64,000 nucleotides of DNA from a virus (lineage: Duplodnaviria > Caudoviricetes). A program made the translations under genes and the position numbers. The notes under the pieces were generated by a model that was not told the DNA's origin, searched no databases, and saw only the letters and a list, made by a program, of their open reading frames with translations. Where the stretch lies: the IMG/VR virus record IMGVR_UViG_3300021256_000073, positions 39,607 to 103,606 of that record; one strand, 5' to 3'. The stretch's first letter is position 1; the number at the start of each line of letters is the position of its first letter. Below are positions 26,189-56,423 of this stretch, one piece after another.

Positions 26189-28068
26189 AATTAAATATAA
26201 AGAAATTTCAATTTGGAGGTGAGTTTGCCTCTTTAGCTATTGGATATACTCCAACTAGCCCTCAGACAACAGCGGGAGCCTATGCTCCTGCTATTGCTGA
26301 GAGTAGCTAGACAAGTTCTAAAAGTTCTTCATCTTCAAAAGATGATATATCTATAAAAGATGTACTTAAAGTTTTTGAAGGGGTTAAAGGACTTCCAATA
26401 GATGTAGACTATGTAATTAAGGATTTTAAATAGATGTTCCAAGATGACGTACTATTTGGAACTACTGGTAAACCAAGTTATTCCAACTTAGTAAGTTACT
26501 ATCTTAATAATGTTAGTAAGTTTAATGCTTTACGTCGTGGAGAGGAGATGTATGATAAAGCACGTGAACAACTTGTAGCAAATAATAGCTTAGACGAAAT
26601 AGCTATTGATAGGCATGGAAGAGTACTTGTAACTAATGAAAAAGGAGATTTAGATGCAGTTACTCTTGAAGAATTTAAAAAGGGAGATTATACAGCGCTA
26701 TCTAATAGAGATTTACTTGACCTTAGATAGACTAAACTTCCATTTGGAGATAATATCTACAGTAATATGACTGGAGTTGGAATGGAAGATGTTATTAAAA
26801 AGATTAATAGTGTAGCACATAGCTTCGGAACTTCAGAAAAGAAACTTGAAGGATATACTGTTAAATAGTCTGATGCCATTAAATCTGGATTAGCTGCTAT
26901 ATAGGAAGCTCAAGGACTTGAAGCCTCAGCTATGACAGTTGATGGACTTTATAAGAATTCTGTTATTACTAAGGACTAGAAGTAGCAAGCCTAGTATGCT
27001 ATGTAGGCTATATATAATAGTCTTACCCCACAAGAAAAAACACTTCTAAGCATACATTCTTAGGGAGGAGATCCAACCGAAACTATATCTAATATAGTAT
27101 TATCAAGAACTTCTAATACATTTAATTTTGATACTGAATATCAAGCTAGTCTTAATGCTGATGGTTCTAAGAAAGAATCTTCTAGTACTAAGGAGGATAA
27201 AGAAGGAAATGATAATCCACTTACATAGATGTTAGAGCAAAAAGGAGGCCTTCCATCAGTTCTTAAGTTTATTACTAAAGAAGGAGAGTTTTCTATGAAT
27301 ATACCTGGAACTCAGTATCCAATGCTTAATAAAGTAAACGGAGATATGAGTATCAATCAAATGCTTCAAGTTAGTGGTATTGCTGGTATTACATAGGGAT
27401 TTGGTGGAATTACAATGGGAGACCAAAGGGTTCCATTTGAAAACTTAAAAGATATTATGTATGAAAATCAAGGTGGACAAGTTGCTGTTCTTCCAGCTAC
27501 TACAGACCAACTTGGTAATAAAGTAGTTGATTTATCTATAATGGATGACTACAATGAAATTGTACGTAGTATATAGGCTCCACAAGGTTCAGAAGCATGG
27601 AATAGAGAATTAGCAAAAGGACTTAAAGCTAAAGGTCTTGACCAATACTTACAGGGTTCTGATACTTTAGATAGTAGACGTTTTGGATTATTCTTAATGG
27701 TCAATGGTTATACCACAGACAGATGGAAGTTTAATAAGGATTCTAAATATGTAGAGTAGATTACTCCTACTAAAGAACTAGAGCAAAGAATGTCTGCTGC
27801 TTTAAGTACTGATAAAGATAATAAGAATTATAAAGTTGATATAGATGACTGGGGACTTGGATGGATTGCCGAAGGTTCATATGATGATATTTATAGAGGT
27901 ACTGTTTATATACCACTTAATCCAAACAGAAATGCCGCTGTTAGTGCATATGGAAGTACAGTTTCTCATCAAGTAGGCCAGTTATATGAAAGAAATTATC
28001 AAGATATTCTTTCTGGTAAGGTAGATTAGCAGAAAGATACAAGTAGTGATATACTGAACGAACAATGA
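26185..28068 (+). CDS. Putative cargo protein, 627 aa (TAG=Gln)
   Basis: MKLNIKKFQFGG...; joins ORFs 26434 and 27790. ATGA overlaps at both ends. Confidence 0.75.
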
Positions 28069-31000
28069 AGAAAAATGATTTTATAGTTGCTAGTATAAAC
28101 AATCCTGATTTCACAGTTGCAGATTTTAAAGATATATCTGAAATGAATTTAGGAAATACCTAGATGTTATCAGAGGAGGAGTACTTAAAAAGTAAATTTA
28201 TTAAGGAAAATCCTCTGTTCTAGGATAGTAATGGAAATTTTGTAAAACAAAAATTCTCTGATTTTTATAGATAGAAACTTAGAGACTTTAGCGAATTTAG
28301 TACTGAAAGTTCTTTAGATAATTATCAATATGGACTTTTCGATACTTTTCGTAAAGCAAAAGATAATGTAAGACCTTTTGGTGTTAGTTTTGAAAGAGTA
28401 GCTAATTCAGAGAGAAGAAGTACTGGTATTGTAGGTCCAAATATGTTAGGAGAACGTACCTTATCTGATAGAGAGCTTGCTCAACGAGAAAAGGTCTTTG
28501 ACTTTGAGAAAGGTGAATTTAGAGATTATACTCCTAATGATTTAGCTTTTACTAAAAATCCATTGTCTTGGATAGGTTCATTATTTGATGACCCATTGGT
28601 ATTAGCAACATATGATGAAAATGGAACTCACTACGATCCTATTTTAGGTAGACAGGTAGAACATGTTAAAGGTCAAAAGAAATTAAATGACCATGGAGTT
28701 CCATATTATGAAACACTTGCAGGACGTTCTGCAGCTAATAAGGATATCCTTAGTGTTACTGATACACTAACTGTAGATGGCTCTTGGATTAATAAGTATG
28801 ACTTCTTTGATTCTGATGGAATGGATAAGAGTATTGCTGGTACAGTAATGAAAAACTTGGCAGTGATAGCTCCTATATTTATTCCTGGAGCTGGACAATA
28901 TTATGCAGGAGCTTTAGTAGTAAGAGAGATGGCCAAGACTATGCCAATGTTATATGGTATGGCTGGACTATTTAATAATGATTTAGCTGACTCTAAACTT
29001 ATAAATACTGTAAGTGCTTTTGGTAATAAATTCACTGGTAATACATCAGATTATGCTAAAGAAAATATGTTTTCTTTTGAAAACTTTGGAAGTCTTGTAT
29101 CTGATGTAGCCCTACAATGGTCACAATAGCAATGGATTATTAATAACCTATCTAAAATAAATAAGGCTACAAAAGCCACAGAAGAGGCAGCTAAAGCCAA
29201 AGCACTTGGGGAATATACTAAACAAGCAAAAGCTTTAATGACTCAAGGAGAAAAAGGAGAGATAGCAATGTCAAGAGTTGCACAGCTTACAGGTGCTAAA
29301 GATAGAGCTGCTCTCAATGAATTATTAAAGAGTGACAAATGGATGGCTACTACTTATGGTGGTGCTGCTCTTGAGAAATATCTTACTCCAGCTAGAAATA
29401 TAATTGCTAATAAAACTAAATTAGCACAAGACCTATCTCTTGGTTATATGGCCATTATTTCTAATGGAGATGTATATCAAGATGCACTTGACCACGGTGC
29501 ATCTAAGAGAGAAGCAGCTATGTTAGCCTTAGGTAGTACTGTAGGAATGTTTTCTGTTGATAAGTATTTGGGACTTGGAGAAATGTTCTATGATCCAGCT
29601 TAGAAAGCAGAAAGAGCTGCTTACAGAAATGCAGTATTAGGAGAAACAAAGAAAATTACAGAATAGCTCAAGCAACTTACTCCTGAAGTAACTGTCGGCA
29701 TGGGTAACAAGGCCGTTTCAGATACAAAGAAAGGTCTTGGTAAATACTTTATGAAAGGTATACAAGCAGGTAGAAAAGCAGTAGAAGACTATCATAGTGC
29801 TATTAAAGAAGGAACTCTTGGATTCTTTGGTAAAGCTCTTGGTGAAGGTTTGGAGGAAGTATCTGAAGAACTTGTAACCGATATTACTAAGCAACTTGGA
29901 GAGATAGCTGGACAGTATGGTATTTCTGGAACTACTGATTTAGGTGCTTGGGAAAATATGAAAGATAGATATCTTATGTCATTTTTAGGAGGTGCTATTG
30001 GTGGAGGTATATTCTCTCTAAAGGATGGAAACTTTAAAGCCCGTCAAGCATCTGGAGAGTTACTTACTCTTCTTAGATAGGGTAAGGGATAGGAAATTCG
30101 TGATGAGCTTAAAAGAATGCATGATAAAGGATAGCTTGGAAGTACTGAACTTTCTTATAAGACAGAGCAAACTTATGATGAAAAGAATAATCCTCAGGCT
30201 GTATTCCTAACTGCTGATGATAAGAACCAATCACAAAATGACTATGCTTATAATGTACTTACATAGTCAATAGAACAAATAGAATCTATATTACAAAAGA
30301 ACCATCTTGTAAAGTCTGAAGACGAACTTTTTGAAAATCTAGTCCTTCAGGATGAAAACTATACTGCTCTTAAAGACTATTTACAAGATGCTTCATATAT
30401 AACTGGTTATCAAAGAAGATACCAGCAACTTGTTAAAAACATAGTAGCATAGGAATAGAAGATTAGGGAAATGGAAAGCTCAGATAGTGGTGCTAATAAA
30501 AATAGAACTGAACTAGATGAAGCTAAGAGAGATCTTAATAATATGCTACTTGAAAGAGATAAATTCTTTAATGGAGATTACTCTCTTGAATACTTACAGA
30601 AGATGCTATTTGCTACTAATCTATAGTTAGCAGGAGCATTTATGGACCTAACAAAAAAATAGTTTACAAGATCTATGCTTAATGTAGATTATGATATGTT
30701 AGATGGAGGTATGAAAGAGTTTATTGATAAGGCTTATGAACAATAGGTAAAAGATCCATCTAAAATAGAAGAATAGCTTGATAAATCATTTGATTTATTC
30801 AAGAAACTACAACCATAGATGGAACCTATACTTTCTAAGCATGCAGGTGGAAGTAAACAATGGGAAAATATTCGTAAGATGCTTGATGAGAAGGGCATTT
30901 TAAAGAATGAAGATATGTATACAGTTGATTCAATGCTTCCCGGTGAGGATGAAGAATCTGAATCATATGTAAATAGAGCTACTCTAAAAGAAGGTGAGTC

Positions 31001-34000
31001 TCAAGCAGACTTTGCTAAAAGACTTAGAGATAGAGCTATGACTGTTGCAGAACATAATGCTCGTCTTAAGATTCAAAAACTTCAACAAGTTCTTGATGAA
31101 GCTAAAGTTGATTCTTATGACCCAGCTACAGGTATAACTAAGCCTGCTTCATTTATTGATCCAAGCACACGTCGTTATTTGATGGCTTATCTTGGAGAGA
31201 CACAACAACACATTAAAAATAGACTTATTGCTCGCACAATAGGAACTGCAGTTAGTAAAGAACTATTAAATGATGCAGATAACTATGACGAAATGATTAA
31301 GAAAGTAAGAGATTCTTTAAAAGAACGTTATGAAAGATAGTTAGGACAAGCTTATATGACTTATCTTGGTACACAAGATTATAAAGGACTTACTTCTTTC
31401 TATAGTCAGTTAACATCAAAACAGAAGTTCACTCTTGAAGAGGTACTGAAAAATCTTAATAGAGAAGGTTGGGAGGATTTTACTGTTGCAGAATAGTTAG
31501 CAGAAATGTTTACTGAAGCCACTGGTGCAGAAGGTGATTTTGATTTTATATAGGCTGCTCAACAGTATGATGACTTATATAATTAGTATATGTCTGAATC
31601 TGATCCAGATAAATAGGCTGACCTTAAAGATTAGCTTGATGCACTAGGACAAAAGGAATTTGAAGCCTGGAATCAATCTAAACTTGATACTGATGTTTAG
31701 AGTATGGTAGATACTGAGATGAAGAATATTGAATCTAAATTATCTAAACTTAGTAATCTATTTAAAACTGATGCTGACTTAAAAGCTGCTAAAGACCTTG
31801 AAGAAAGACTTTCTGTTGAGGATAATCCAGCAGTAGAGCTTGTAAAGCAAATAGCTCCTAAGATTGGAAGTTCTGCAGTAGAAGTTGAAAAGGCACTTGA
31901 GTCTATACATAAGCAATTTATGGATAATGAAAAGCCTTATGACTTTGTGTTATCTGGAGACCAAGAAAAATATCTACAAGATGCTTAGAAGCTTATTAAA
32001 ATAGTTACTGCTATGGTAGCTGCAGCTTCTCGTCCTTCTAATCTTAATGATGGAATGACATATAATAAAGCTGTTAATAAGTTCCATGCAGACCACCAAG
32101 GAAAACAAAAAGACTCTGAGTTCTTTAAGAATTTTGAACCTTTGTTTGAAATGGATGAGAAAATAGGTGGACAACTTATTGCTGCATTAAATGGATATTC
32201 TAAGGAAATTGATTAGTGGATTGAATTATCAAGAACAAACAAAGCTAATAGTGCTGCTAGTTTACAAAGAGCTTCTGAAGCTTTACATGATGCAAGACTC
32301 GATTTTTTAGGCGGAAGTATGACGTCTAATAAGTATCTAGAGAACAGTATTATTGATACAAGTTCTAATTATGCTTTATTTGACTTTGAAAGACAGTTCC
32401 ATGAAAATGTCAATGAAGCTATAAAGAATGGAACTTCACTAAAAGAAGTATTTGAAGACTTGCTTGCACACCTTAATTAGGATGATGCTATACTAAGTGG
32501 AGTTACCTCTAATATTGATGAAGAACTTAAAGAACTTACAGCATATGATAAGTTCATGTATCTTACTTCATTAATTGCTTTAGATCCTGCAGAACAGCTT
32601 AAGAAAGAACTTCAATTTACAAAAGACAATCCTAAAGTTGCATCACTTGCTACACAATAGCCAGGTATGTTACTTGGTCAAGCACTAGATGCTAATCCAG
32701 ATGTTATTAATACTGCTCTGGAAGTATTATAGGACTTAGCACATAAGAAAGGTATTGATGTTCCTGTATTATGGAATGCTACTGTCGTTACAGGTATAGG
32801 TGGAGGTGGTAAAACTACTGTAGAAGCTAATTATCTATCTAATGATGATGAACTTACTTGGGTATCAGGTCCAACTGATTCATAGGCAGACGGACTAAAA
32901 ACTATTCTACCTAAAGCAAAAGTGCTTAGTATTGAAGCCCTTAAAAAGGCTATATATACAGGAGAAATTAAGTCAAAACCTGGAAAAGGGCTTGATAAGG
33001 GTTGGAAGCCTAAAATACTTGTTGTTGATGATTCAAAATTTGTAACTAAGGACGCTCCTAAACACTTAGTAATTGATGAAGCAACACACATAGATAACCT
33101 TGACTTATAGCTTATATCTAGATGGGCTAAGCTAGCTGGAGTCAAGATAACTTTACTTGGTGATGAAAATCAGAGAGGTAAAGAATATAATTTAAATAGA
33201 GAAGCTGTTATAGCTTATAGAACCCCAAGACTTAATTTCTCATTGAGAAATGAAAGTATTTGGAAAGTGCAGAACTAGAACCAACTGGTTCGTATGCTAG
33301 ATAAAATGAGGAATTCTTCAGGAGAAACAACTGAAGCAGTATTCAAACAAGTACTAGAAGAGCTTCATAATAAATTAAATATGAGTTACTTCGAGAACGA
33401 AACTACATTAGAAGGAGATAAGATTACTTCTAAGGTTACTGCTGAAGACCTTTCTAAATTAAGTGGAAGTATTGCCTATATAGGTGATAATAAAACTCTT
33501 GAAGAATTTATAAAGACTCATCTAAATCCTGGCACCACTTTTACGGCTATGGATAAAGATTCTGTCCAGGGTAAGGAATTTGACTATGTAATAGTTGATT
33601 CTGACTGGGGAGGAAGAATGGCTAAAGGAGCAGATAGTAAATTTAAATATGAAGAGCATATCTTTGAAACTACTGAACTTCTTAGAGATTTATATACAAT
33701 GATTTCTAGAAGTAGAAAGGGTAGTATTGTAATTGATAATCAAATAAGTAATGTGGTTAATGCTGTAAAAGAGGATTATACTACAAAATATGAGAGACTT
33801 GGTGAAGATGTTGTTCAAGCATTTAGAGAGGCTCGTATTGCTTATATAGAGGATATGCTTAATCATATTAAGGAGGAAGAACCTGCTGCAGTAGAAGTGA
33901 CTGAGGAGCCTGAAACTCCTAAAAAGGAAGGAGAAGAACCTTTAGAGGAACCTGGTACAGAAAATATTCCAGAAAAGAAGAAGGAAGAAATTCAAAAAGT

Positions 34001-36941
34001 TGAGAAAATGGATTTTGAAAAGAAACCTATAGGTTATAGAGCTTATGGTAATGTTGCTTTTATAGGTAATGTTGTTATAAACGGAAAAGATTGGATACCT
34101 CAATCTGGACCTATAAGAGATATTGGTCTATTCTCTCCTAAAGCTGATGGAACTCTTGCTTCTACTTATGAGGAAAAGAGATAGCTAGTAAGAGATCTTA
34201 ATTTTGTTAAAAGTTTATTCTTATATGACTTGGATATTGATTTATATGATTTACCAATGTCATTAAGAGGAAAAATTACTAAAGAATCTCTAAAGAACGC
34301 TTAGTTCTATCTTGTAGCTGAGAATAGGGGATATGTACATAATCTAACTGGACGTACTACTTTAAAATAGGACGAATTAGATTTCATTCCTGGAAAAGTA
34401 ATAAGCATACAAGCAAGGATTGACACTCCTGCTGGTCCAGCTATTATTACTCTTGGAGCTGTAGCTAATCCTAAAACTTGGATAGATGGAATAAATAAAA
34501 ATCCTGAACTTTCTGAAGAGTAGAAATAGGAATAGATAGCACAAGCACAACACTATGAAAGTTAGTTAAAAAATCTTATAAATAGTGATTCCTAGGAAAT
34601 TCATATAAATAAACCTAAATTTAATGGTCGAACAGAATTAGTACCACTTAGATGGAAGGACGTTCTAACAGAAGAACAACTTAAAAATCTTCCAGATCCT
34701 AATGCTAGAAGAAGCATTAGAATTGAAGATTTATATGATGATACCTCTGAATTTGATGCTAGAACAGGTAATTCAGTTGTAAGTCCAATACATATAATAA
34801 CTGCTCCTATACCAGGAATTGATGTAAGTTTAGTTGGACATTCTGTTTTATTTGTTTCTAACAACAACACATTAAATCCAGAACAATTAGGTAGACTATT
34901 TATATAGTAGCAAAATGATAGACATGCTGGAAGAGAATCTAAAGCTTAGGTAAGAATGATAGTTCTTGACAATGAGGGTGTATCATTCCATTCTCTTTAC
35001 AGAGGAAGTTTTAAAGATATATATAGTACAACTCTATAGGATAAGGAGTTTGAATTCCCAATGAATCTACAAGCTACAAGTATTCGTATGCTTGCTTCTT
35101 TATGGAACTTTAGAGCAGATCTTAACAGATTTATAAATGCTATGAACAATTCTGGTTATACCAGAGAATAGCTTATAGATATGGCTAAGACTGATTCTGA
35201 ACTTTATCAGGAACTTCAAAATAAAAAGATTGAAGAATATAAAGCAATGTATGGAAAAGAACCAGAGCAAATACCTGTTATTTCTAATACAGAGTATAAG
35301 CAATGGCTCAAAAATTACTCTGATAAAGAAAAAGTAGATAAAGTTCTTAAACTTATTGAATTTAATGAGAGTTCTGACCTTCCTAGATTTAGAGTTGGAT
35401 GGAGTAATATTACAGGTTCGTATATAAGAAGAATATATGGACTTAAAGAAGGAAATCCTTATTACAAGGATGTAAAGAACTGGAAACCAGAAGAAACAAA
35501 TGGTATTTATATCAATCCTGATTTGGCTTACCAATATCAAGAGATGCTTAATTACTTATTTGATAATGTAGTTAATAAAATCTATGATACCACTCCTTTA
35601 GATGTAAATGAAAGAATCAATTACAAGGAAGGAGAAAAATGGTTGCTTGAATCTAAGGGTATGAAACTTACCATTAATGATGAAGGTAAAACTATAAATA
35701 TTCCAACTCAGGATAAAGTTAAAGCTTTACCTCTTATTCTATCTAAGATAGCTAATTTCTTATATTATAAAGCTCACTTTGGCTAGGATGTATTTAATGA
35801 TAAGAAAATCAATAAGAATCTATTTCATATCTATCTTGATTATGAAAATAAGAAAGGAGAAATAGAATATGATTTAGACCAGTTCTTATCAGCAGAAGTA
35901 AATGGAGAAACTGTTAAAGGACTTCTTAAGGAAGCTTCATCTAGAAGAGATGTTATAGGACAGAATGAATATAAGTATAAAGATGACTCAATAGGCTATC
36001 AAGATGCACGTATTGATAACTTCTTTAACTTAATATTCCACGGAGTTCCATTTGAAAAGCATTATAATGATTTTAATCATAATGTATAGTCAGATACATT
36101 AGCTTTATTTAAATATGGATTCCTATCTGATCCTGTACTTATAGCAAGTGGAGGTAGAGCAAGTGATATGATTGCACCTTGTGCTACTAACAGAAAATTA
36201 TTTAAGTTAGATGTAGTTCCAGGAAATCCTATTCTTGAATTTACATTTGACTAGGTTTCTGAAGCAGGTCCTGAAGTAGAAGAAACTACAGAGCATCCTT
36301 TGCTAGCAGAAGCTAGAAGTCATGGACTCGATACTTCAAGATTTAATTTAGATGGTTATACAGATGATGAGATAGTAACTTTCATAGAAAGAAAATTTGA
36401 TCAACGTGATAGTAAGATATTTGCTAAAGGTGAAGGAGACCTTTCTAAATTAGTAATGAAAGTAGAAGCTGATAAGATTTACACATTAGCAGATACTAAT
36501 CCTGAAATAGGAAATATTGTTAAATAGGAACCTACTGGAGATGGTAAAGGCTTTACAGTTACTAATGATAAGGGGGTTAAATTCGAAATACATTATGCTG
36601 ATCATGAAATTACTGTAAGTGAACCTAAGGCTGCCCCTGGGGCAAGAGTTGAAGGAGAAGGTCCAAAAGTTGAAGTGAAAACTGAATTTACAGGAGGTGA
36701 GATATTCGATGCTGTTAATGCCTATATAAAGGATAAACCATAGTATGCAGATAGTGATTCACTTACTGAATGGTTAAATGGTGATACTGAGGTTTCTTAT
36801 GCTTTATAGGACTTGAAAGCATATAAGGAAGATTTAAGAGCTACTTTAATGGATGAAGGAGTTCTTGAAAAAGATGATATAGATAACATAATGAATGAAT
36901 TAGATGTACTTATCAATAAAATAAATACAAGCGATTGTTGA
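28065..36941 (+). CDS. Giant virion/ejection protein with superfamily-1 helicase domain, about 2958 aa (TAG=Gln)
   Basis: Ten track ORFs in one frame, separated only by TAG. Ejection-protein-like segments (LGEGLEEVSEE, FLGGAIGGGIF). SF1 motifs GIGGGGKT (32793), VIDEAT, LLGDENQ, SVQGKEFDYVIVD and YTMISRSRKG. Ends ...SDC TGA. Confidence 0.85.
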
Positions 36942-36942
36942 T

Positions 36943-39900
36943 ATGCAATGTAAATTACCAAATTTTGGGAAATTTGACGAAGTAGGAGTTCCAGCAGATA
37001 TACTGGAACTCCAAAACGTCGATGATATAGTTAAGGGTGTAATTAGTACTTTTAGTACCAATCCAAACTTTAGTACTTCAGAAGAGCAATCATTATCTCC
37101 TGAAAAATTTAAGGATTCAGTTGAGATTGCTTTAAATAAGTTAGCTAATGTTTTAGATGCTGCAGATAAAAATAATCCTACCCTTGACCTGAAGAAGGGT
37201 GGAAAGCACTCTGAAATGATTCTAGAAAATCTCAGAATGGAGTACTATCCTAAAGGAAACATTACTAGAGACGCAGAAATAGATTTATCTGCCATCATAG
37301 ATGGACAACTACAAGGTAGAGAAGAAATAGCTACACAACGTCTTAATAAGATGTTGGATAAGTTCTTTGCTAATAATCTACCTGCAAAAGAATATTTTAA
37401 AACACACTTTAGTAGGGAGTTAGGACTCTCTACTGTTATTCGTATAGGACAGACCTTAAAGGATAGTTCTATCGTTGATAGCGAGAAAGCACTTAATGAA
37501 AACATAGAGAAGTTCTTAGCTAATCAATATCTTATTATTTACAGATATCTTAACTCTTTAGGACTTGCTAAAGGGTTACCTAACTCTATGTTTAGACAAA
37601 ATACTCCTATAGGAACTCATACTAATACCTTAGATAGGTTCTATAATCTTGTAGTACACAAGAGTAAAATAGGAACCCTTGAAGATGAAATTGAATCTGA
37701 ATGGTAGAATAGTATTAGTAAGGAAACTGATACAGAAGATGGCTTATTTAAAGCTGTAAATGCTTATTTATCAATAGTTTATTTTGATAAACTTGCTAAA
37801 GAATCTATTGGTAAATATATAAGCAGTAATAAGAATCAAGAATATCCAATTGAAAAAGATTCTGAGGGAGTTGTACATTATAAATATAGCTTTGGTAAGG
37901 ACACAGAAAATAGAGTACATGGTTGGTAGATTGATGTACGTGATGCTCTAAAAGAAATGGGTAATTTTTCTAAATTTCTTATATCTAGTATACCTATTGA
38001 TGATACTTTCCTAACTCCTGTGAACTACCTTGGAGCATTTACTAATTTATTTGGCAAAGTTGGAGAATTAATTGGAGGTAATGAACAAACAATAAAGTTG
38101 TATAATGCTATTGTTTCATTTAATCAAGATCCAGTTAATAAGTTTAGAGAGATTCTTACAATTATTAATAAATATGATTCTATAAGAGAATTCTTAGTAA
38201 AAAATAAGATTGTAAATCCATATGAAATGAAAGTATTTGATGCTGTTTATGAACATGTATTTAATGGAAGTAACTCTCTATTTAATATTGAGGCATCATA
38301 TAACAAAACACATGGACTTACTAATAGATACCCTCTTGTGGAAAGCCTTGCTGCTTAGATAGGTTCTAGTACAGAAATGTCTTATCTATAGACTGTATAT
38401 AACTATAATACTAATAAGTATGAGACTGTAATTAAGAAGAAATTCCAAGTAAATAAGCAAAAATTTGACATGATTAGTGGTATGAACAAAGATAATTAGC
38501 CACTTGAATAGGTAGACTTTGCTTATAAGTTTGTTACTAGAAGTCCAAGTTTTTATTCTATAGACTTTGGAGATTATACACTAGATGTATCTCTGGATTT
38601 AGTACAGAATCCTTATGGAATGTTAACTAAGTTTGGAAATAAAGGTGTAAAAGTAACTCTTAAGGATAAGAAAAGTGGTGCTGAATTAGATGTAAAGTCT
38701 CTACTTAAAAACAAGGATATTAGCACTAAAGCTAAGAGACAAGCTTTACTTGATAGTACAGCTAGTGACCCATTTATTCAAATACTTGAGTTTATAGATG
38801 CATTTACAGGAACAAGTTTCACTTCTAGTTAGGATGGATTGTTAGAATTTGATTTATTCAAAAATAACTATAAGGATTCTCCTATAAATGCTTTAATTAC
38901 CGCTGTAAGAGGTATGTTGATTAAGGAAATCCACAATCAATTTAACTAGGCAAAAGCTAATGGAATTTATAATTCAGGACAAATTGATAAATTTATAAAA
39001 GATTCCAAAATAATTCCCGATTCTGTACTTGGTATTGATCCTACTGATAGGGAATGGAATACTATATGGGAACCATCTGTGTTTGGTCCAGACTTAATTA
39101 CTATTAGTAAGAGTGAAGAATGGGTCGATAATTATGTCACCATTAAATAGATGATGTCTGGAGAAATATCTAAAGCTAATACTAAAAACTTAGCTGGAGA
39201 TAGTGTTCCAAACTATGGACTTGCATTTATGGGCTCTGATTTACATACTGTTATAAAGGACAGACAGCACTAGAGAGATACTGCATATGGGGATCTACCA
39301 TTAGATAGCAATATATTTATGATTGATCCTTCTATTGTTAAAGGTACTGTTATTGATACTGATGTACGTTTAGCTGATGGTACTTCTAAACAAGTTAAAA
39401 ATATGACTGAGGGAGAGCTCTTCTATCATGCTATAGTTGATAAATTCTTGATACCTTTAGTGCAGAATGAAAATGACAAGTATATGATTATTTAGCCTAC
39501 TACTTATTCTGATAAGACTAAGTTTGTAAACTATATGATTAGTACTATGTTCAATGGAAAAGACATATCTAAAATGTCCACTTCTGAACTTGAGAACCTA
39601 TATATAAATACAATAGGTAAGAGTTACCAATCTATTTTACATAGTGTATTAAATGACTATGCTAGAATATTTGACTTAGGAGATATGTATTCTTAGGCGT
39701 ATACATTTGACGAGTCTGGATTTATTACATCTACTAACATTGATGCAGTTAGAAAGATGGTAACTACTATAGATAGAAAACTTAATGACTATACTGAATA
39801 GGAATTAGTAGCTTTAGCTAAAACTAAAGGTGTAAAAGAAATATTAGCTGATACACACTTTAGATATAATGGCAATAGAAAAGCTAATGGTAAATAGCAC

Positions 39901-42900: not shown

Positions 42901-45900
42901 GAATCTAAGAAACTTTCTAATGATTAGAGATCCAGAATAAATAATTATATAGAAAGATTAAAGGCATAGGGTATTAAAGAATATGCTAATACATAGGAAC
43001 TGCTTGATGAACTTGATAAAAATACTTGGAGTAATACTCAAGTTATTGTACATAATACTCCAGCTGAACTTATAATGTCTAATATCTATCAAACTAGATT
43101 TAATGTAGGTGTAGATCAATCTATGTTAGATATGGTAAAGGACGGGCCTAAGCCTGCTAAAAATATAAGACAAGTTCATTAGAGTGTAACTCCTGACTTC
43201 TACGACCTAGTTATGACTAAAGCCAATGGACATAACACTTACATCTCTTTAGATAGACATTTTGAAACTACTGTAGCTGATGAAGATGGTGAACTCCCAG
43301 ATGTTCAATATAGATGGACATATTGGAAAGATAGAAGTAGAAAGTCTATAGTAGACCCATTAGTAGTTAATGATGTTTATGCTACAAATAAGGACTAGAA
43401 AGCTTTATTTAGAATAGGTAGGGATATAAGACGCCCTGATTTAGCATATAATCAAGAAGGAAAATTCTATTATTATGTTCCAACTTCTACTAATCCAGAA
43501 ATTATAAGAGTAGAAGATGATAAGAAACTTAACTATGTAAATGGTGAAGTTAGAGAATATGTAGAATTTGTAACTAAGCATGAAGTTAAACAAAAGGGTA
43601 AGAGTCATACAGTACTTAATATAGATGTTGAAAAGCTAAGAAGAACTACACAAACTCATTCCAATGAAGAAGTAAATAAGATAATAGAAGAACTTCTCAA
43701 GGAAATTTATGAGGCAGACTCTTATGAGACCTTTACTGTTAATAATCAACAAGTTAGACGTACTAATCTAGTTAGAGTTCAAGATGTTCTAAAAGGAATA
43801 GTTAGTGATGGATTATTTAGATATGATAATGTTTTACAAAACTATTTGGAAACTATATCTGAACACTTTGGTAAGCTACCTAAAGATAAGGAGTTTAGTA
43901 GACCTGATATTAAGTATAATCCAGAAACTGATGCTATTGAATTTAGTGATACTAAAAGTAATGGTGCTATAGCCAAGATTATCAATGATAGAACTAAAGT
44001 TCTCAAGGAAAGACTTAATAATAAGAAGTATTATTCATTCCTAAGATCTTAGTATTATACAGCTTCTCGTATTCCTGCACAAACTCTTCAATCATTTATG
44101 AATATGAGACAAGTTGGTTATACTGCAGAAGGCTCTAATTTAGCTTATGTATCACACTGGCAGACTTGGTTACAAGGTTCTGACTATGATATTGATAAGG
44201 CTTATATAATGGGACTTGCATTTGATGATAATGGTCAGTATATAGGTTGGTCTAGTTTATTTGATTATAATAGTTTAGATACTATAAGAGCTTCTGAATA
44301 TCTTCCTCTTCCTAAAAATGGTGTTACCATTACTGAAGATGCTAATGGAGTAGATATAACAGAAGAAGCTGCTATACTTAATGAAGTAGAACCAGCTCTA
44401 GAAGCGGGAATTGCAGATCCTAAAGTACTTAATGAATATAAGGTTAGAAGACTTTTAGCTTATGTTTCTATCTTTAATAAACTAGGAGAAGGAACTACAG
44501 TAAAAGGTGCTAATGAAAAAATACTAGAAACATTAAATTAGCATAATGCAACTAGACTTCCAGCAGATATTAAGGCTCAGGCTCTTAGAAACTTTATTTC
44601 TGTACATATTCAGAATACTATTTAGCATATTAGAAATGCTGCAGATTCTTATGTACCTGTAGAAATGGAAGACCTAAGAAAGGCTGCCGATAACTCTCCT
44701 AAGGGAGCTGAAGCACTTGAAATTACTCTTATGAACCCTCTTTCTACTTACACTATGTAGTATTAGAATATGACAGGTAAGAATGTAATTGCTATATCTG
44801 CTACAGGTCAAAAAGCTGCTTTTATGTGGATGGAGTATCTAAACGATACCATAAAAGACGCTAAACTAGGAGTTGATTATATAGTCAACGAAGTTGGAGA
44901 AGTGCTACCTACAGAAAACTCTGACTTAGCTTATGCTAAATTCTAGTTCAAAACTAGTCGTATAGCAGGTAGAAGTAAGTTAGATAAGGACAAAGTTCCT
45001 CAAATCAGAGAGGTAACTTCCACTACTCTTCCAGATGTAAATGTAGAAGGTCTAGAACCAGCACTGGCTAATTATATATAGGGAGGTAAGTTAAAAGCTC
45101 CTATTCCTATTGATATTTTGATAAGTCAGATGATTTCTGCTGCTACTGATAATGCTAAAGAGCTTATTCTAGCTAAGATTAATGCAGGTAGTAAACTTGC
45201 TAAATGTTATTTGTTCCTAATGACCTTAGGATATGACATTAATGATATAGTTAAGTTTATGACAAGCCCTGTAGTATCTTGGATTGATTCATTATCAGAT
45301 CCTAACATATTCTTAGACTAGGAAATGCGTATCGATGAGGCCATAACTGAAGTAGAAAAGTATCTAAAAAATTATGATACTAATAAAGATACTGAGTATC
45401 TTGAGGATGAAGCTGGATATGAAATAAAGGGTTCTCGTGCTAAGTTAGCTTTATTAAGAAGTATAGTTCCTTCTAATTTAACTCCTGCTCAGATTAGAGA
45501 AGCTCAGCTTGATCTTGAAGAGTTTAAAAATATAATGGATGGTGCTGATGAATTTAGTACTTTTGGTAGACTCCTTAGTATTAACCAAGGATTACCAGGA
45601 AAGGCTGAAGATTTGGAAGGCACCCTCTCTAAGATAAAGAAAATTATTACTAAGAGAGAAAAAGACTTAGGACTTGTTAATAAAGATGGAGTCTTAACAT
45701 CTACTCCTGACGAAAGATACGCAGATATTGCTGGAGGAATGTTTGACCCTATTAAGTGGCTACAAGACGAAGAATATCAGGAAAGAGTTGCTGAATACTA
45801 TGATAAGTTAAAAGCAACCCTCAATATATTTGGAATTGTAAGAAAACTTCCTCATTTTAAGAGCATGTTCTAGCTACTTGGAGCTGAGTGTACTGTTAAT

Positions 45901-46941
45901 CAGTTCTCTGTGAAGAGTAGAATTTTAAGTTCATGCCTTGCTAAGATTAGTAGAGAATGTCCTAATTTATTTATAGATGATAAATATTACTCTAGAATAT
46001 TAGGATTCGCTTCTTCTCTTATGATGCAACAATTCGTATTAGATGGAGACTTTAAAATACCTGTTAGTGGTGCTATTTTAAATAGCGATAGAACTATCAC
46101 TAATGTAAAGAAAGGAATATTATCATTAGATTCAGAAGAAGGAATTGCTTCATTTAAATACTATTTTGAAAATGTAGTCATTCCTGGATTGAAAGCAGGA
46201 ACATTTGAAGGCTTTGACGACTAGGAAAGAGAAGCTATTCGCAGAAATGCATTTATATAGGCTCTTACTAGAGGTAATGATCGCGATGTACCTGTATGGA
46301 AGACCAATATAAACATTTCTTCAGAATCTTCTTATACAAGAGTTCAGTTATCTAGATTTAGTAAGGGACTTGCTCAATTGCAGAACTATAAAATTGGAAA
46401 TCAGTCACTTGCAGATTGGTTTGCACTTTATAACTTAATTGTTAACAAGAACCAATACGGTTCTGATCGTCTTACTAAGATATTTGAAACTTTTGTAAAA
46501 GAATTTGATATGAAAGGTGATAATGTAATTAATAGATATTTAAAATATGTAGGAGACCATGATTACTCAGAAGCAGATATAAGTTCAGTAATGAACTTTA
46601 CTGCTATGGACTTGTTCATTTCACAAGCAAGGGTTGTTTCTAACTTAAAAGGTCAGAAAGATCCAGTTGTAATTATGTATGAGGATAAAGTTCCTGTATA
46701 TTATAAGAATGTTGGTTATGGAAGATATGAAAAGATGGACGATATACTTCCTGCTTTACCAAATGAAAGTTTGGAGCAGCATCTGCACAGATTCTTCTTA
46801 AATAGATCTTATTTTGTACTTGGTAAACCTTACACTAATATACTTGCTAGACTAGAATAGTCATTAAAGGCATCTCCTATTACAGCAATAGTAGATTTAA
46901 TGAGACAAGCTAAGTTATTCTTAGATATTAATTGTGTATGA
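36943..46941 (+). CDS. Virion-packaged DNA-dependent RNA polymerase (crAss-like, two-barrel), about 3332 aa (TAG=Gln)
   Basis: Catalytic DxDxD loop QGSDYDIDKAY at about 44173-44205, preceded by SRIPAQ. Second-barrel-like motif DSHDGAAYINP followed by conserved Lys residues (KKP, LVKFA). Continuous frame to TGA 46939-46941. Confidence 0.9.
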
Positions 46942-49457
46942 AGAACTGTACTATAACTTTTAAAATTGGAGAAACTACAAGAAATATAGTAGTTCCCGAA
47001 GAAGAATTCTATGGGGCAGAGGGTGAACGCTCTCTGCCTACATGGGATTTTCAAGCTAGATTAGGACAACTTCTAGCAAGAAGAAAAGATGAGTGGAACA
47101 GCTTAAAATAGGTTATTATCCAAACTTTAAAGGATAATAGTGCAATTTCTAGAGCTGTAACTTACAGTCAACTTAAAGATAAATAGGGATTAGTTCCTAA
47201 TGTTAACTTTAAGTATATATAGGATACCTATCCTGAGATAGAGTTTCCTGACATAGATGTACCTATATTACTTATTGATAATCTAGATGCTCAATCTAAA
47301 TTCCCTGTATCAGGAAGAGTTATAGATAAAAAAGGTAAAGAAATATTTGTTGTTAGAGGAGATAAGGATTCTCTTGTACAACTTAAGGGTTATTTGGAAA
47401 TCAGAAAGAAAGTTCTTAGTGGTGAATATAAAGAAACACTAGACCAGGAACTTAGTGATGCTCTTAGCTAGATTGCAGCTAAAAAGGGTATATCTCCAGA
47501 GGAAACTATACTTCAGTATTTAAATAATACAAAAGCAGAAAGAAAGGCTGGAAAAGAACTTATTAATGGAGTATCAATGTATACATGGATGACTTATATA
47601 GGCAATGCCATAAAAGGAACGCCAATAAAAGTAAAATATAAACACCCATTAATTAATGAATTTAATAGAAGACTTACTACAAATAAATATGATTAGAGAG
47701 TTATAGCTGTAAGTGAGCTTTTTGGGATTCTAAAGTAGTTATATCCGCATCTGTTTACAACCCAAAAAGAATTTACTAGACTATTTGGTGGAAGAGCTGA
47801 CATAATGATGAAAGCATTACTAGAAGCTAAGAACTTAACTGATGATGAAGTTGAATTCCTATAGTTACTAGATGATGAACGTAATGCTTATAGGGAAAGA
47901 CACGATGACGATGAAACTGAGCAATGGGGAATGTCTACACTATTTAATGTTATTAATTAGCTAACAGAACCTGAGGAAAACCCTATATCTCTTAGACCTT
48001 TAGCTCTTAAAGATGGAAAGTTTATACTTGAAGACAAATTCCCTACTTTAAAATCCTTATATGGGTATGGTTATGAAACTGTTTCTGCTTTTACAGAAGA
48101 AGAAGAAAGAAATGGATATCATATATACAGTCAAACAAAAGAAGTGGGTGACTCTACAATAACTTATTATTATGTTACTCCTTATTTTATAAATGAAAAC
48201 TTACAAGCTAGAAGATTTGCAAGTCTTAGTGATGCACAAGATTGGATTGATGAACACTTTGCTAATCAAAAACTTAAAGAAAACTCATTCTGGAATCTAA
48301 AAGGAGAATATAATGATTTTGGATTAAAAGAGAAAAGCACAAGAACTTTTGAGACTGAAAAATTCATACCAGAAGGTACAGTATTTAGCATGCTAGATAT
48401 ACCAATGGACTTAAGATCCCAAAGTATGCTTGATACTGAATTTCTACTTTTAAATAAATCACTTTAGGAGTTCTATGACTATATAAATACTTTAGACTTT
48501 AGTTAGTCTACTAAGGACAGTATTATTAGTAAAATAAATACAGCTGAAAAGGCTACTATTTTTCTTAGTGAACTTAATAAAAGGCTTAATTCTAAAGATG
48601 AACAAGGAGTTAAAACTTATCCTAGAAACGATAATGATAAAGTAAAAGCTATTCTTAATGAAATAGAAACAAAATAGCCAACTTATTATTATGTAAGTAA
48701 ATCTTTTAAAGTAGATGATGGAAAGTATCGTATTCACTATATAGTAACTGATGAAAAAGCTGTTAATGAAAACCGTTATAATAAGAAGACTCCAGTAATA
48801 CAGTTTTTAAATAGTATTGCTAAAGTTATGAAAGAAAAATTTGGAGTTCCTGTTAATATTGTAGATAGCTAGGAACTTACAGATATGGGAATGGAAGATA
48901 TTAACCTTATTAAGGCGTTTATTAAGGACGGAGAGATTTATATTAATTCTGACTTAGCAAGAATTGAGGATGCTTTTCATGAATATGCGCACTTATTCTT
49001 AGGTGCTTTAAAAGCTAATCCAGACTTTAGGGATAATTACTTAGCTTTTATAGATAAGGTATTATCAACTAAAAAAGGACAAGAGGCTTTTAATAGAAAG
49101 AAAAAGAAGTTTTCTAACCTTAGTGACTTTGATATAGCAGAAGAAACTGTTGCAGATTTATATGGTGACTTTATGGAAGGAAATTTACCATTAGATCTAA
49201 GTATGTTATTTAGTGCTAACGATGATATAAAGAAGATATAGGATACTATATTTGATAAAAAAGATAAAAGTAAAGCAATTTAGGATTTTGATGGTTCATT
49301 AGAGTCTATATGGAAGCGCTTTAATTCTGATGTAACTAAAACTCTAGGTGATAATATTAACTTTATAAAAGACGGGGCTATACAAGTGCAACGTTAGAAA
49401 GATAATTGGATTAAAGACCAAATCCGAGAAGGTAATATAAAAGAAAACTGTGAATGA
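46938..49457 (+). CDS. Large virion protein with zincin-like metallopeptidase domain, 839 aa (TAG=Gln)
   Basis: AFIKDGEIYINSDLARIEDAFHEYAHLFLG (HExxH at 48978-48992) with downstream EETVAD. ATGA overlaps at both ends. Confidence 0.82.
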
Positions 49458-52400
49458 AAAATTGTACATATGATATATTAAGTACAGGAGATGAAGGATT
49501 ATCTCTATTAGAACTACTGAGATTCGTAGATAAACAGTTTGCAGAAGTTCTAGATACGGAACAAATAGCTTCTATTAGTGATGTAGTATTCTCTAAAAAT
49601 CCACTTAAGGACTCTATTATTACTAAGCTAGGAGAAATAAAGCATGATTACATTGTAACAGCTGCACGTACTGTTTCTACTTATGATGATGAACTTGGAG
49701 GAGATGGTAATACATTATCTTATCAGGAGTTTATTGAAGATCCACAGTGTCTTATAGATGGAGTTCCTCTAGTAAGACCTTATGACAGAGATACATTTAG
49801 AAAGGCAGAAATACAGAACCTTGTTGATAATCATGGCTATAAAGAAGCTGCAGCTGCTGCTGAAGTAGATAAAGACTTAGCTAATATGGACCAGTTTAAG
49901 CAAGATTCTGTAGTCTTGCACAAAATTATAGATGGACACGGAGCTATATCTACTAAAGTTAAGACTTCTGACTATTTAGAAGGTATCAAAGATATAGTAA
50001 GCGGTACAGTTTTTGATGGTCGTAAAGCTTTACTTGAGGACCTTAAGGGTTAGATGGAAAACTTTGTAAATCAATATATATATCGTACTTAGGTAAATCC
50101 TAGTATTATAGGTAACGTTGGACTTAAAGCAAAAGTTGAGGCTCTTGGCAAAGAACTAGTAGGACACATTGACTATCTTTCTATTGATGACTCTGGAACA
50201 TTACATATTTATAATTTTAAGGCCTCTCAGAGACCTATGAATATGTGGTCAAAAGATAAATGGAAAAAGTACAATTACGGTATGGCTTTCCTTAAATAGA
50301 TGCTAGCTTATAATGGTATCCCAGTTAAGAATATTGAGCTTAATATAGTTCCAGTTAAAATGGAATATAGTGATGGTTTATCTAAAGTTGTTATAGGTGC
50401 TCCTCAAAATATATCAGTAAGTAAAACTGGTAATTATTTACTTGAGCAGTATGACAAGCATGCTAGGCATTTTGTGCGTAGTAATGTTGATATACCAAAA
50501 GTAACAATTGAAACTTTTGATAAAGCTGACGAAATATTCCAACATATTTTCCCAGTTCTAAATATGCGTAGTGAAGGTACACATCGCTCTGCTGTGGAAA
50601 TGATTAAGAATGCACCTGAAGCCGGAGAAGCAGAGCCACTTATCATTAGAGAGGTGAATGATGAGAAGGGGCGCTGGGAGGTTATTATAGATGGTAAATC
50701 TTATAGACCTAAATCTAATAGAAATAAGAACCTAAATTAGGATATTCTTGATATAGTAGTTCAGCATCTTGACGAAATTTAGGATGAAACTCTTTAGACA
50801 GTACACACTCTTAAAGAGGCTATAAATAAAATGAACTAGATTGGAGAACATGGAGTATTTGTACCTGAATCTGATGTAATTGATAAATTAAAAGGTCTAT
50901 CTTCATCTAGAGGATTTATCAAGATGATGCTTGATACTTACTTTAATGATATTTCTGAATGGGAAGGTAGTGGAGAAAAGAAAAGACCTATATATAGATG
51001 GAAGTTACGTGATGAACTTCTTGACTATAACATAATTCTTATGCAAAATAATGATACAGGGCAACTTGATGTAATTTCATTATCTGCATTTGATTGTAAT
51101 GCTGAAATACCATTTGGTAAAGGAAGACATAATTTACTTGGTGCCTATAAAACTGATGTATAGACAAATACTTTAAAAGGTGATTATGGAAATGCTGAAG
51201 TTATTCGTGCTATTGTACTTCTCAATTAGATTCTTCCTACTATGAAGGACATGGATAATGTTCAATTAGGAAGAGTAAAGGTGCTAAGTCATACAGGTAC
51301 ATCAAGAAATTATGCTATAAGTACTATTACATAGAAATACCTTCCAGAAATAATTACAACATTAAAGGATAAAGGTAAACTTGAAGTGCCTAATAACTTT
51401 AGAAATCTTAAAAAAGAGTAGTTTGTAGATCCTCTTAACTCTGTAATGTATGAATATTCATTATTAACTAATGCTAAAGGCGAGGGGGAGATAATGAGAT
51501 ATTCTCCTGATAAATTTACAGAGCTTGCAAGTATTATAGAAAGTGATGAGAATCATAAAAAGACCAAACTGCTTAAAGAACTTCTTGATACATTTTATTG
51601 GGAACTTCCAACTAGAAAATTTGATGAAATAGCTCGCTATGCTAAAGGTCAACTTGGACATGCAAGAGATTAGTAGATGTGTAAAGTCTACAGAGCTCTT
51701 TCAGATGCATATCATCATTATGCAAAAGAAACTTTTAATTATGAAAGAGAGCTAACTGACATTCATAGCTTTATGTCTACTACTAATCACGTTCCTAACT
51801 AGAATATACGTATAGTTACTGATAACTTGGCTCAAACTTATAATGCTATTGCAGGAGAAATTGAGAGTAACTATACAAAGAATATTCGTGGCTTTATAAT
51901 GGACTTTTTAAAAGCTAAGGGATATGGACTTGCTCAAAATGCCACTCTTGGTAATATGAATTCTCTATTTAAGAATATGTATGAACAAGATGAAAATGGT
52001 AATAGAACAATGAAGTTTAAAAATCCTTGGACAGATGGGAGTCTTGATGAAGCTGAAGCAACATTTTTGAAGAAGGCCTTATACCAGTTCTATTTAATTA
52101 GAAATAAAGGTAATGCTCTTGGCTTTAAAGGTTATGATGATCCTGAAATTCCTAAGTTTATTAAGGAAAAAGCTGGAGGGCATAAGTATTTATGGTGTCC
52201 ACTTATGAGAGCATCTTCTTCTACTAAAGTAATGCAAAATCTTGATGTTAGTACTTGGAAAGGAAGAGCAAAACGTGCTTGGAAGGTGATTCAAAATCCT
52301 GGATAGTATTATGATGAACAAATAGAAAAACTTACTGAAGAAGAAAGAAAGTTAATAAACGAAGGTTTAAAGGCTGATACAGAAAAACTTGGATAGGTAA

Positions 52401-54100
52401 TAAATATGTTTAACATAGGTGATGAGACCAATGAAGCAGGTTCTCGCTAGAAGTTTATTGATGAGCAAGGAGTAGAATTCTTTGAGACTAATGTAGAAAA
52501 TATACTTCTTGAATATTTATCTAAGTCTATAGAATGTGAAAAGCTAAAAGACTTTATGATTGGTACTCGTTCTCTTCTTTTCCAACTCACTATGATGGGA
52601 GAGGAATCTGGTAATTCAGAAATAATGAAGAGAGAGATTAAATATATTAGAGACTTCCTAAAGGTTAATGTATTTAACACTACCATTAAATCCGAAACAG
52701 GTAGAGTTCTGACAGGAGCTTTAGCTGGATTAAGAAGTCAAGTAACTCTTATAAACCTTGGGGGTAACATGATATCATTTTTCCGTGATGTATTCCAGGG
52801 ATTTGAAGAAAATTTCATGAGAACAGTTACTAAATTGAATACTGACCTAGATGCTAAAACTCTTAGTTAGGCTTATGCTTATGTAGTTAGTCATGGAATT
52901 ACTGATACTATGCATATAAGTATGCTTAGTGCCCTATAGGCTAGATATCGTCTATCTAATATAGACCTTGCCAGTATGGAATCTTTACGTATTGGTAGAG
53001 GTGGTGCAGCTAACTACAAGAACTGGGCTTATGCTACTCTTCGTAGACCTGACTTCCTAAATAGAATGACCTTATTTGTTGCTCGTTGTATGAAAGATGG
53101 TTGCTGGGAAGGATGGGAACTTAAAGATAATATTCTAACATATAATTGGAAGAAAGATAAGAGATTTAAAGCCCTTGTAGATGGAACTTCTAAAGATTCC
53201 AAAGAATATAAGCAAGCTAAAGCTCTTTATATGTCTAAAGTTCGTGAATGGAATTCAGAGCATCCTGATAATCCAATCGATTTAAATCCAGAAACTGCTG
53301 AAACTTTCTTACCTGCACCTTATTCTGATAGAGAAGTCCTTGCTATTAAGGAAGTATCTGATAATATCTATGGTGCATACGATAAGTCTCTTAAATCTAT
53401 GGGAGAACATACTACTCTTATGTGGTTCTTTGGTATGTATACTACTTGGATGAATGGTATTTGGAATAACTATTTTATGAAGCCAGGTAAGTATATTGCC
53501 AATCGTTCTAATATGGAACAAAAGATAGGAGAGAATGGAAAGCCATTATTCCTAGATGAAAATGGAGGAATCACGGAGGAAGATACTGGAATGCCTTTAT
53601 ACGAGAATGTTCCAACTATAGTACAAGGTATAGCATATACACTTAGAGATTTATACTATGTTAGTAAGGATGGTGGTATACAAGCAATGAAAGACTATAT
53701 AAGTGCTAACCCAACAGTTAGAGCTAGTCTAGCTAAATTACTTAGTGATATGCTTGTAACACTATTGTTATTCTCAGTATTTAAATTTGTTTTAGACCCA
53801 GCTTATACAGACTATAAAAAGGAAATGAAAGATAATCCTGTTATAGCTAATCTAGCTACAGAGATATTCTATAAAGCAGGAGGACGCTCATATGACTCTT
53901 TTAGAGGTCCACTTAATCTTAAAGACTGGCTTGGAGATAATGTAGGTTCTCCAATGTATGAAGTAAATCTAAAAGTAATGTAGGATGCTATTAAATTTGC
54001 TACAGGTAGAAAGAGTGCTACTGATGTAATAGTTGGAAACTTTGCAGTTGCACGTACAGGTAAAGATACATATAATGCTTGGAAGAAAGCCCAAGAGTAA
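49454..54100 (+). CDS. Giant virion protein with degenerate PD-(D/E)XK-like domain, 1548 aa (TAG=Gln)
   Basis: Joins ORFs 49454, 50300, 50924, 51446, 51827, 52556 and 52976. Motif LVGHIDYLSIDDSGTLHIYNFK at 50156-50221. Ends TAA 54098-54100 before the convergent terminator. Confidence 0.8.
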
Positions 54101-54150
54101 AAAAAAAATAAGGGGAACCCGGTATTTCTACCGAGCTCCCCTATTTTTAT
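54101..54150. terminator. Bidirectional terminator between the convergent late (+) and early/middle (-) blocks
   Basis: A-tract, imperfect stem AGGGGAACCCGGTA / TACCGAGCTCCCCT, then T-tract, exactly at the strand switch. Confidence 0.85.
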
Positions 54151-56417: not shown

Positions 56418-56423
56418 ACTATT

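Follow-up and report, generated by a model that had tools for sequence, protein, structure and literature searches.

Known systems and the locus analyzed

In the cyanopodophage A4 (Anabaena phage A-4L), cryo-electron microscopy of the packed pre-ejectosome has shown gp27 with its C-terminal helix inserted into gp26, where it is held in place by an intermolecular disulfide between Cys1715 of gp27 and Cys5 of gp26 (PNAS 2025, PMC12002296; PDB codes 9K2V and 9K3A). In the A-4L genome, we find that the two proteins are encoded by consecutive genes and that each of these cysteine (Cys) residues is the only one in its protein (1,717 amino acids [aa] in gp27 and 1,114 aa in gp26). The ejected proteins of the N4-like phages lack Cys altogether, and the explanation offered is that they travel through the periplasm (PMC11445570). 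Crassviruses are the most abundant phages in the human gut. They pack and inject nearly a megadalton of protein, including their RNA polymerase, and this cargo is invisible in the sole virion atlas. The atlas, that of crAss001, assigns gp47, gp49, and gp50 to a cargo zone in the capsid, argues that they are partially unfolded for passage through the tail, and documents disulfides that join subunits in the tail and at the portal vertex (PMC10172136). The corresponding polymerase of phage phi14:2 is auto-inhibited, its activation being unexplained, and the paper describing it reports that the three proteins of this set are fused in some phages. Here, we present an analysis of a 64,000-nucleotide stretch of DNA (below, the window) that covers positions 39,607 to 103,606 of the IMG/VR record IMGVR_UViG_3300021256_000073, a virus of the Caudoviricetes. 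Four consecutive giant genes at positions 28065 to 54100 of the window encode proteins whose ends face each other with terminal Cys residues, and we argue that these probably mark end-to-end disulfide links between the proteins.

Facing terminal cysteines in four giant proteins

When read with translation table 11, the region from 28065 to 54100 yields short open reading frame (ORF) fragments, whereas table 15, in which TAG encodes glutamine, yields four long, tightly packed ORFs on the plus strand (g1 to g4) with 51, 48, 15, and 20 in-frame TAG codons, respectively (134 in total). The source record is a 103.6-kb linear fragment that is about 57% complete, and because neither the window nor this whole record contains a suppressor tRNA (or any tRNA gene at all), the decoding of TAG as glutamine rests on the continuity of the ORFs and on homologues written in the standard code (contigs L007 and L017). 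The four ORFs are as follows.

28065..36941, plus strand: g1, 2,958 aa, with a Walker A/AAA_30-like ATPase region; first in the proposed chain, with Cys at the C-terminal end only
36943..46941, plus strand: g2, 3,332 aa, a virion-type RNA polymerase with the motif DYDID at residue 2414; middle of the proposed chain, with Cys at both ends
46938..49457, plus strand: g3, 839 aa, a zincin protein with the motif HEYAH at residues 681 to 685; middle of the proposed chain, with its sole two Cys residues at the ends
49454..54100, plus strand: g4, 1,548 aa, whose homologue in contig L014 matches PDDEXK_1 (PD-(D/E)XK); last in the proposed chain, with Cys at the N-terminal end only

The complete set of Cys residues in these proteins is small. 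In g1, there are two, Cys2706 and the last residue, Cys2958 (codon 36936-36938), with none near the N terminus. The polymerase g2 has Cys3 (codon 36949-36951), five internal residues, and Cys3331 of 3,332 (codon 46933-46935); g3 has only Cys4 (codon 46947-46949) and Cys838 of 839 (codon 49449-49451); and g4 has Cys4 (codon 49463-49465) and seven internal residues, the last of which, Cys1217, lies 331 residues before the C-terminal end. At all three junctions, a Cys situated 0 to 1 residue from the C-terminal end of one protein is followed by a Cys at residue 3 or 4 of the next, and the two outer ends of the block lack such a residue. The pattern had been described in an earlier note on this DNA, and its junction coordinates agree exactly with the above codons. 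Its hand counts (residues 4 and 838 alone in the 839-aa protein; one internal Cys plus the last residue in the 2,958-aa protein) and its claim that the outer ends are free of Cys (none at the N-terminal end of g1 and none in the last 331 residues of g4) are likewise borne out by the table 15 translations.

Together, the four proteins contain 19 Cys in 8,677 residues (0.22%). At this frequency, a given end has about a 1% chance of carrying a Cys within 5 residues, and all six facing ends would do so with a probability of about 1e-12; this probability is still about 1e-7 when calculated from the Cys content of the window's other proteins (1 to 3%). Chance is excluded as the cause of the pattern. 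For comparison, only 2 of the 66 ends of the 33 other ORFs in the window have a Cys within 6 residues, and the Cys content of the cargo block (0 to 0.5%) is low against that of the window's other proteins (mostly 0.7 to 3.8%, with a few short ones at zero).

We predict that the products of these four genes are carried as cargo in the virion of a crAss-like phage; it is their crAss001 and phi14:2 counterparts that have been found in virions by mass spectrometry. Two features point to a Crassvirales cargo block, namely, the position downstream of capsid, muzzle, and cargo genes and a zincin HExxH motif in a protein neighboring the polymerase, here the HEYAH of g3, which is invariant in 115 sequences; the motif is also present in phi14:2 gp076, crAss001 gp47, and p-crAssphage gp45. 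The polymerase g2 has 452 homologues of about 3,000 to 3,600 aa, and what ties it to the phi14:2 and crAss001 polymerases is the DxDxD motif, the protein size, and the gene order, a direct sequence match to PDB 6VR4 being absent. PHROGs gave no match for g1, g2, g3, or g4, and the only Pfam match in the four was that of AAA_30 in g1, which is below the cutoff but is recorded for g1 homologues. Sequence searches of PDB (g1, g2, and the g4 profile) gave no real matches, a Foldseek comparison of the g3 model with PDB gave only nonsignificant zincin-like rows, and profile comparison of g3 and g4 with phi14:2 gp076 gave no signal.

Conservation of the terminal cysteines across crassviruses

As the earlier note had suggested, the positions of Cys were determined in the giant proteins of relatives, and the terminal residues were found to be conserved, at internal junctions only, in every relative checked. 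All junction Cys residues are kept in three IMG/VR relatives with 58 to 80% identity. The human gut phages MT835470 and MT835492 (about 30% identity) have a Cys at every junction, while their internal Cys residues vary; in MT835470, g3 has the two end Cys residues only and g4 the N-terminal one only. A full hidden Markov model search with g3 recovered 364 relatives, and all 115 full-length homologues (20 to 36% identity) have a Cys at residue 3 to 8 and another 0 to 3 residues from the end. The complete list of invariant columns in the g3 alignment is C4, H681, E682, H685, Y701, E735, E736, and C838; that is, the end Cys pair is as strongly conserved as the catalytic HExxH. Three initial exceptions proved to be one gene cut by a contig end and two wrong start calls, with the true start upstream reading M-K-C or (GTG)-S-K-C. 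Among the polymerase homologues, 104 of 120 have both end Cys residues, and the remaining 16 consist of 14 near-identical sequences whose start was called 16 codons too late and 2 that end at an intron site; the overall count of polymerase homologues with both end Cys residues is 105 of 105. The homologues of g4 have the N-terminal Cys in 19 of 19 cases (at residue 10 in one and at residues 3 to 5 in the others) and a C-terminal Cys in none of the 19. The complete blocks of four diverse contigs (L015 to L018) obey the rule at all eight ends, as do those of L007, crAss001, and phi14:2, and every apparent exception could be traced to a wrong start call or a truncated gene.

The cultured phages show the same pattern. 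In phi14:2, gp078 (1,797 aa) has a single Cys, its last residue; the polymerase gp077 (2,180 aa; PDB 6VR4) has two, at residues 3 and 2179; and gp076 (1,421 aa) has a single Cys at residue 3, so that the four Cys residues in the 5,398 residues of this trio are all terminal and facing. In crAss001, gp47 has a single Cys, residue 2339 of 2,341 (third from the end); gp50 has Cys5, Cys1334, and Cys2404 of 2,412; and gp49 has only Cys5. Here, the gene for gp47 lies on one strand and those for gp50 and gp49 on the other, and gp47 and gp50 are not adjacent. The pattern is therefore not an artifact of gene junctions, and the order is set by the proteins rather than by the gene map. The earlier note had the chain follow gene order, which describes the window, where the partners are consecutive, but does not extend to crAss001, whose first partner is on the other strand.

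The rule has a practical use in annotation. Starts given in databases or GenBank for P0008, P0057, P0206 to P0219, L018:20151, and L020 (crAss002 gp33) are often wrong by 7 to 140 codons; the likely true start is a conserved M-x(1-3)-C right after the upstream stop, where the initiation codon is in some cases GTG. Erroneous start calls of four kinds were exposed in this way, and annotators of recoded genomes could take an M-x(1-3)-C start and a near-terminal Cys as marks of the true gene ends.

Cysteine pairs track protein boundaries

The facing pairs equal the protein boundaries in number, with one pair where genes are fused and four where g1 is split. We counted one pair per genome in the two Intestiviridae examined, two in three Steigviridae, three in the clade of the window phage, and four in MT835492 (L008). 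In this last genome, g1 is split into two overlapping genes, and the new boundary is flanked by a new pair, with a Cys four residues before the upstream C-terminal end and another at residue 5 of the downstream protein, both encoded by TGC. The unsplit g1 has no Cys in the homologous stretch, either in the window (residues ~1416 to 1437) or in MT835470.

Fusions display the converse. In p-crAssphage (BK010471), gp45 has a Cys at residue 1956 of 1,957, and gp44, in which the polymerase is fused to the gp49/gp076 counterpart, starts with Cys3 and has no Cys at its C-terminal end or between residues 2220 and 3105; this interval covers the estimated fusion zone (~2350 to 2680), whose mapping is approximate because it is based on BLAST offsets. 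Similarly, crAss002 gp32 has a single Cys, residue 2019 of 2,020, and the fused gp33 lacks Cys from residue 2140 to 3119; the true start of gp33 is probably the internal M-S-C at residues 33 to 35. The earlier note had offered as an alternative that the Cys residues mark the fission points of an ancestral polyprotein. The pairs do sit at fission points, but the fused forms have none at those sites; hence, the Cys residues are not relics of a polyprotein but appear together with the split. Among the longer proteins, no fused form of g3 was scored, which by itself is weak evidence.

Certain other disruptions of the polymerase gene were also noticed. In three contigs, 0.3 to 1.35 kb of DNA breaks the gene in the catalytic DxDxD motif or immediately upstream of it (L002:6914-7230, L003:5876-7230, and L007:20411-21448); the exon ends have no Cys. 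The interruptions look like an intron or another mobile insert in active-site codons, and the insert in L003 contains a 353-aa ORF with several helix-turn-helix matches (GerE and HTH_28) and 9 Cys residues. In the window, g2 is uninterrupted near residue 2414. In the IAS virus (L021; NC_049978), the boundary between gp055 ("molybdenum carrier") and gp056 ("RNA polymerase") at ~10600-10670 falls in a run of N and is uninterpretable for the Cys rule; poor sequence has probably divided a single polymerase gene into these two.

A proposed end-to-end disulfide tether

We consider end-to-end disulfide tethering of the cargo to be the best reading of these observations, with a probability of roughly 0.65. 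That consecutive proteins are linked by the facing Cys residues is supported because the residues are conserved like the HExxH motif, because the pairs track protein boundaries, and because the same signature in A-4L is an intermolecular disulfide. To this extent, the linkage proposed in the earlier note has gained ground, while the bond itself has been seen only in A-4L. The C-terminal tail of each protein would meet the N-terminal tip of the next, and the one Cys on each side would form an intermolecular disulfide, the predicted bonds being g1 Cys2958-g2 Cys3, g2 Cys3331-g3 Cys4, and g3 Cys838-g4 Cys4. The product would be a single unbranched heterotetramer of about 8,700 residues in which the RNA polymerase occupies an inner position. 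In the AlphaFold2 model of g3 (predicted local distance difference test [pLDDT] score, 83.7), the N terminus forms a beta hairpin (residues 3 to 20), and a C-terminal helix (residues 814 to 830) is followed by a 9-residue tail.

Such a tether would fix the cargo as a 1:1:1:1 set and would keep the proteins together, and probably in order, during a partly unfolded exit through the tail; the short stubs beyond the Cys residues (0 to 3 residues at the C-terminal end and 2 to 7 at the N-terminal end) would keep each junction thin. The links would be reduced in the host cytoplasm, thereby freeing the polymerase and its partners. Internal Cys residues may have been selected against because wrong cross-links would form. 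We infer that the chain would pass through the tail in order and would come apart by reduction once in the cytoplasm, in keeping with the short stubs, the selection against internal Cys, and the unfolding model for crAss001. If true, a conserved tether would provide a concrete model for the stoichiometry, exit order, and release of the cargo, and gene fusion and a disulfide between split products would be interchangeable over evolutionary time. A more sweeping proposal, which we advance only tentatively, is that throughout the order the injected transcription machinery might be one redox-releasable covalent train: terminal disulfides would set its stoichiometry and exit order (helicase-like protein, RNA polymerase, zincin, and nuclease-like protein), reduction in the cytoplasm would uncouple it and help activate the auto-inhibited polymerase, and fusion and disulfide could be traded at any joint.

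Several points weigh against the tether. Virion assembly takes place in the reducing environment of the cytoplasm, and the phage comes from an anoxic habitat; both facts bear on when and how the thiols would be oxidized. The parity of the Cys residues is also compatible with closure of single proteins from N to C terminus, g2 and g4 retain 5 and 7 internal residues and so are not Cys-free, and the N-terminal positions depend on predicted start codons. With regard to A-4L, the PDB sequence searches (g1, g2, and the g4 profile) gave no match to the chains of 9K2V or 9K3A; with no homology to gp26 or gp27 detected, this precedent is therefore an analogy of mechanism and not of family. The bond has been seen directly in no crassvirus, the cargo being unresolved in the crAss001 maps (PMC10172136). 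Finally, the recombinant phi14:2 polymerase is an active monomer with a few disordered residues at both termini; because it was purified and crystallized in dithiothreitol, however, its monomeric state says nothing of its state in the virion.

Alternative explanations

The alternative that fares best is a metal-bridged or other non-disulfide thiol junction, in which the facing Cys residues and nearby acidic residues would share a metal ion and the ends would be joined noncovalently. It would work in the reducing cytoplasm and predicts the same comparative pattern as the disulfide, and E836 of g3, located two residues before C838, is at least 90% conserved. Nevertheless, each end offers one Cys, with no conserved His or second Cys nearby, and the single solved case with this signature, A-4L, is a disulfide. 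We regard a metal bridge as unlikely.

Slim odds also attach to the idea that the Cys residues act only after ejection, with no chain in the virion; periplasmic thiol oxidases would then build an envelope-spanning assembly, or the residues would form a redox switch for the polymerase. The avoidance of Cys in the ejected proteins of N4-like phages and its attribution to periplasmic passage (PMC11445570) would be consistent with such a stage, and the auto-inhibition of the phi14:2 polymerase leaves room for an activating switch, but the A-4L bond is already in place in the packed virion, and a simple redox switch has no need of a strictly facing pattern.

A third possibility, which we judge improbable, is closure within single proteins, whereby g2 and g3 would join their own N- and C-terminal ends and the leftover C-terminal end of g1 would pair with the N-terminal end of g4. 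The parity of Cys residues is compatible with this scheme in every genome, and the ends of g3 in the AlphaFold2 model are fairly confident (pLDDT of 82 to 86), so that each end may lie packed against the rest of the protein. Against this, no beta pairing of the C-terminal tail of g3 with its N-terminal hairpin is called in the same model, and the link in A-4L is one between proteins. The split of g1 in L008 is also instructive, since under self-closure two partners would have had to change their pairing simultaneously; for a link at the junction, the new pair is enough.

A cause at the level of nucleic acids, with Cys codons at stop/start overlaps serving translational coupling or ribosome hopping or being left over from duplicated junctions, is very improbable: two TGT codons do lie 13 to 14 nucleotides apart at each junction of the window, and at the first of these TGT directly precedes the stop, but the pattern is kept in the nonadjacent crAss001 gp47 and gp50 on opposite strands, any codon could serve for hopping and yet the residue is always Cys, the codons on either side are not constant (AAT/AAC), L008 uses TGC and not TGT, and the spacing differs, with Cys 4 residues before the C-terminal end at three junctions of L007 and L008. 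Programmed translational bypass of the T4 gene 60 type was considered in view of the matched TGT codons and is ruled out by the opposite strands of crAss001 gp47 and gp50. Split inteins and trans-splicing, which would call for an intein N-part of about 100 aa beginning with Cys in the first protein and a C-part ending in Asn before a Cys in the next, were also rejected, as the Cys residues lie 0 to 3 residues from the C-terminal end and at residues 3 to 8 of the N-terminal end and g3 has no other Cys; a Pfam search found no Hint/intein domain in the four proteins.

Genomic context and neighboring genes

The gene order of the window matches that of crAss001, in which the muzzle gene is followed by those of the cargo proteins C1 and C2 and then by those of the polymerase-associated proteins. 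The features upstream of g1 are as follows.

4220-5641: major capsid gene (Pfam Crass_capsid), upstream of the cargo block
14752..19383, plus strand: crassvirus muzzle protein gene (Pfam crAss_MUZ, E value of 2e-26), with the cargo block downstream, as in crAss001
22094..26188, plus strand: cargo-like protein, 1,364 aa, with 0 Cys; outside the proposed chain; its position matches crAss001 gp45 (C1), an assignment made by position only
26185..28068, plus strand: cargo-like protein, 627 aa, with 0 Cys, as in its relatives; outside the proposed chain

Within 19328-28068, the region preceding g1, there are four ORFs with zero Cys (576, 190, 1,364, and 627 aa) and, among them, a 107-aa ORF with two Cys residues. 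The 1,364-aa protein terminates in a run of five Arg residues. In-frame TAG codons abound in the structural and cargo genes of the plus strand, with as many as 51 in one gene, and are nearly absent from the main minus-strand ORFs at 54147-63991, from which it appears that recoding is confined to late genes.

Directly after the cargo block, on the minus strand at 54147-60065, lies a cluster of nucleotide and NAD salvage genes, including a deoxynucleoside monophosphate kinase, an NAPRTase (57485-58681), and an ADP-ribosylglycohydrolase (58666-59487); in the relative L012, the cluster extends to NUDIX, CTP_transf_like (NMNAT-like), NAD synthase, and isochorismatase genes. It may be a counterdefense set that restores NAD. 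Thioredoxin genes occur a few kilobases from the cargo block in L017 (28775-29026) and in p-crAssphage (L019; gp39 and gp37), and none was found in the record containing the window; any connection between thioredoxin and the terminal Cys residues is pure speculation.

Comparison with known systems

The closest counterparts of the block, gp078-gp077-gp076 of phi14:2 (g067-g066-g065 in the polymerase paper) and gp47-gp50-gp49 of crAss001, resemble it in their genomic position downstream of the muzzle and cargo genes, in the DxDxD polymerase, in the zincin domain of a neighboring protein, and in the same rule of terminal Cys residues. They differ in comprising three proteins rather than four, with the zincin inside a larger protein instead of in an 839-aa protein of its own, and are too diverged from those of the window for pairwise or profile matches.

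The structural disulfides of crAss001 (the gp57 dimer and the tail hub and ring proteins) establish that crassvirus particles contain disulfides between subunits. Unlike the proposed tether, however, these bonds connect fixed structural proteins in the tail and at the portal vertex rather than ejected cargo, and the connections are not end to end (PMC10172136). The window also has, at 10403-10846, a 147-aa tail-region protein whose last residue is Cys and which may be a counterpart of the disulfide-linked ring or hub proteins of the crAss001 tail. The N4-like phages (Schitoviridae; gp50/gp71, gp51/gp72, and gp52/gp73) likewise eject a giant virion RNA polymerase with partners in which Cys is suppressed (PMC11445570); in contrast to the window phage, they have no conserved terminal Cys and so no such tether.

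In A-4L, as in the window, consecutive giant ejection proteins face each other with terminal Cys residues, and gp27 and gp26 are otherwise free of Cys. The A-4L arrangement, with a single near-terminal Cys on each facing end of Cys-poor proteins, is found in the window phage and its relatives. The A-4L bond lies beside a C-terminal helix, and the g3 model too ends in a helix and a short Cys-bearing tail. A-4L, a member of the Saffermanviridae, differs in that its only link joins two proteins arranged as a pentameric ring, without involvement of an RNA polymerase, and the paper describing it states no general rule or multilink chain. A rule of terminal Cys residues in crassviruses appeared in no paper that we found, the phi14:2 polymerase paper, a comparative genomics paper, and the other papers returned making no mention of Cys or disulfides in these proteins. 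An end-to-end link of this kind was already known for one pair in one cyanophage; what our literature searches did not turn up is the crassvirus rule that spans the order, the multilink chain in which an RNA polymerase is an internal member, or the exchange of a gene fusion for a Cys pair.

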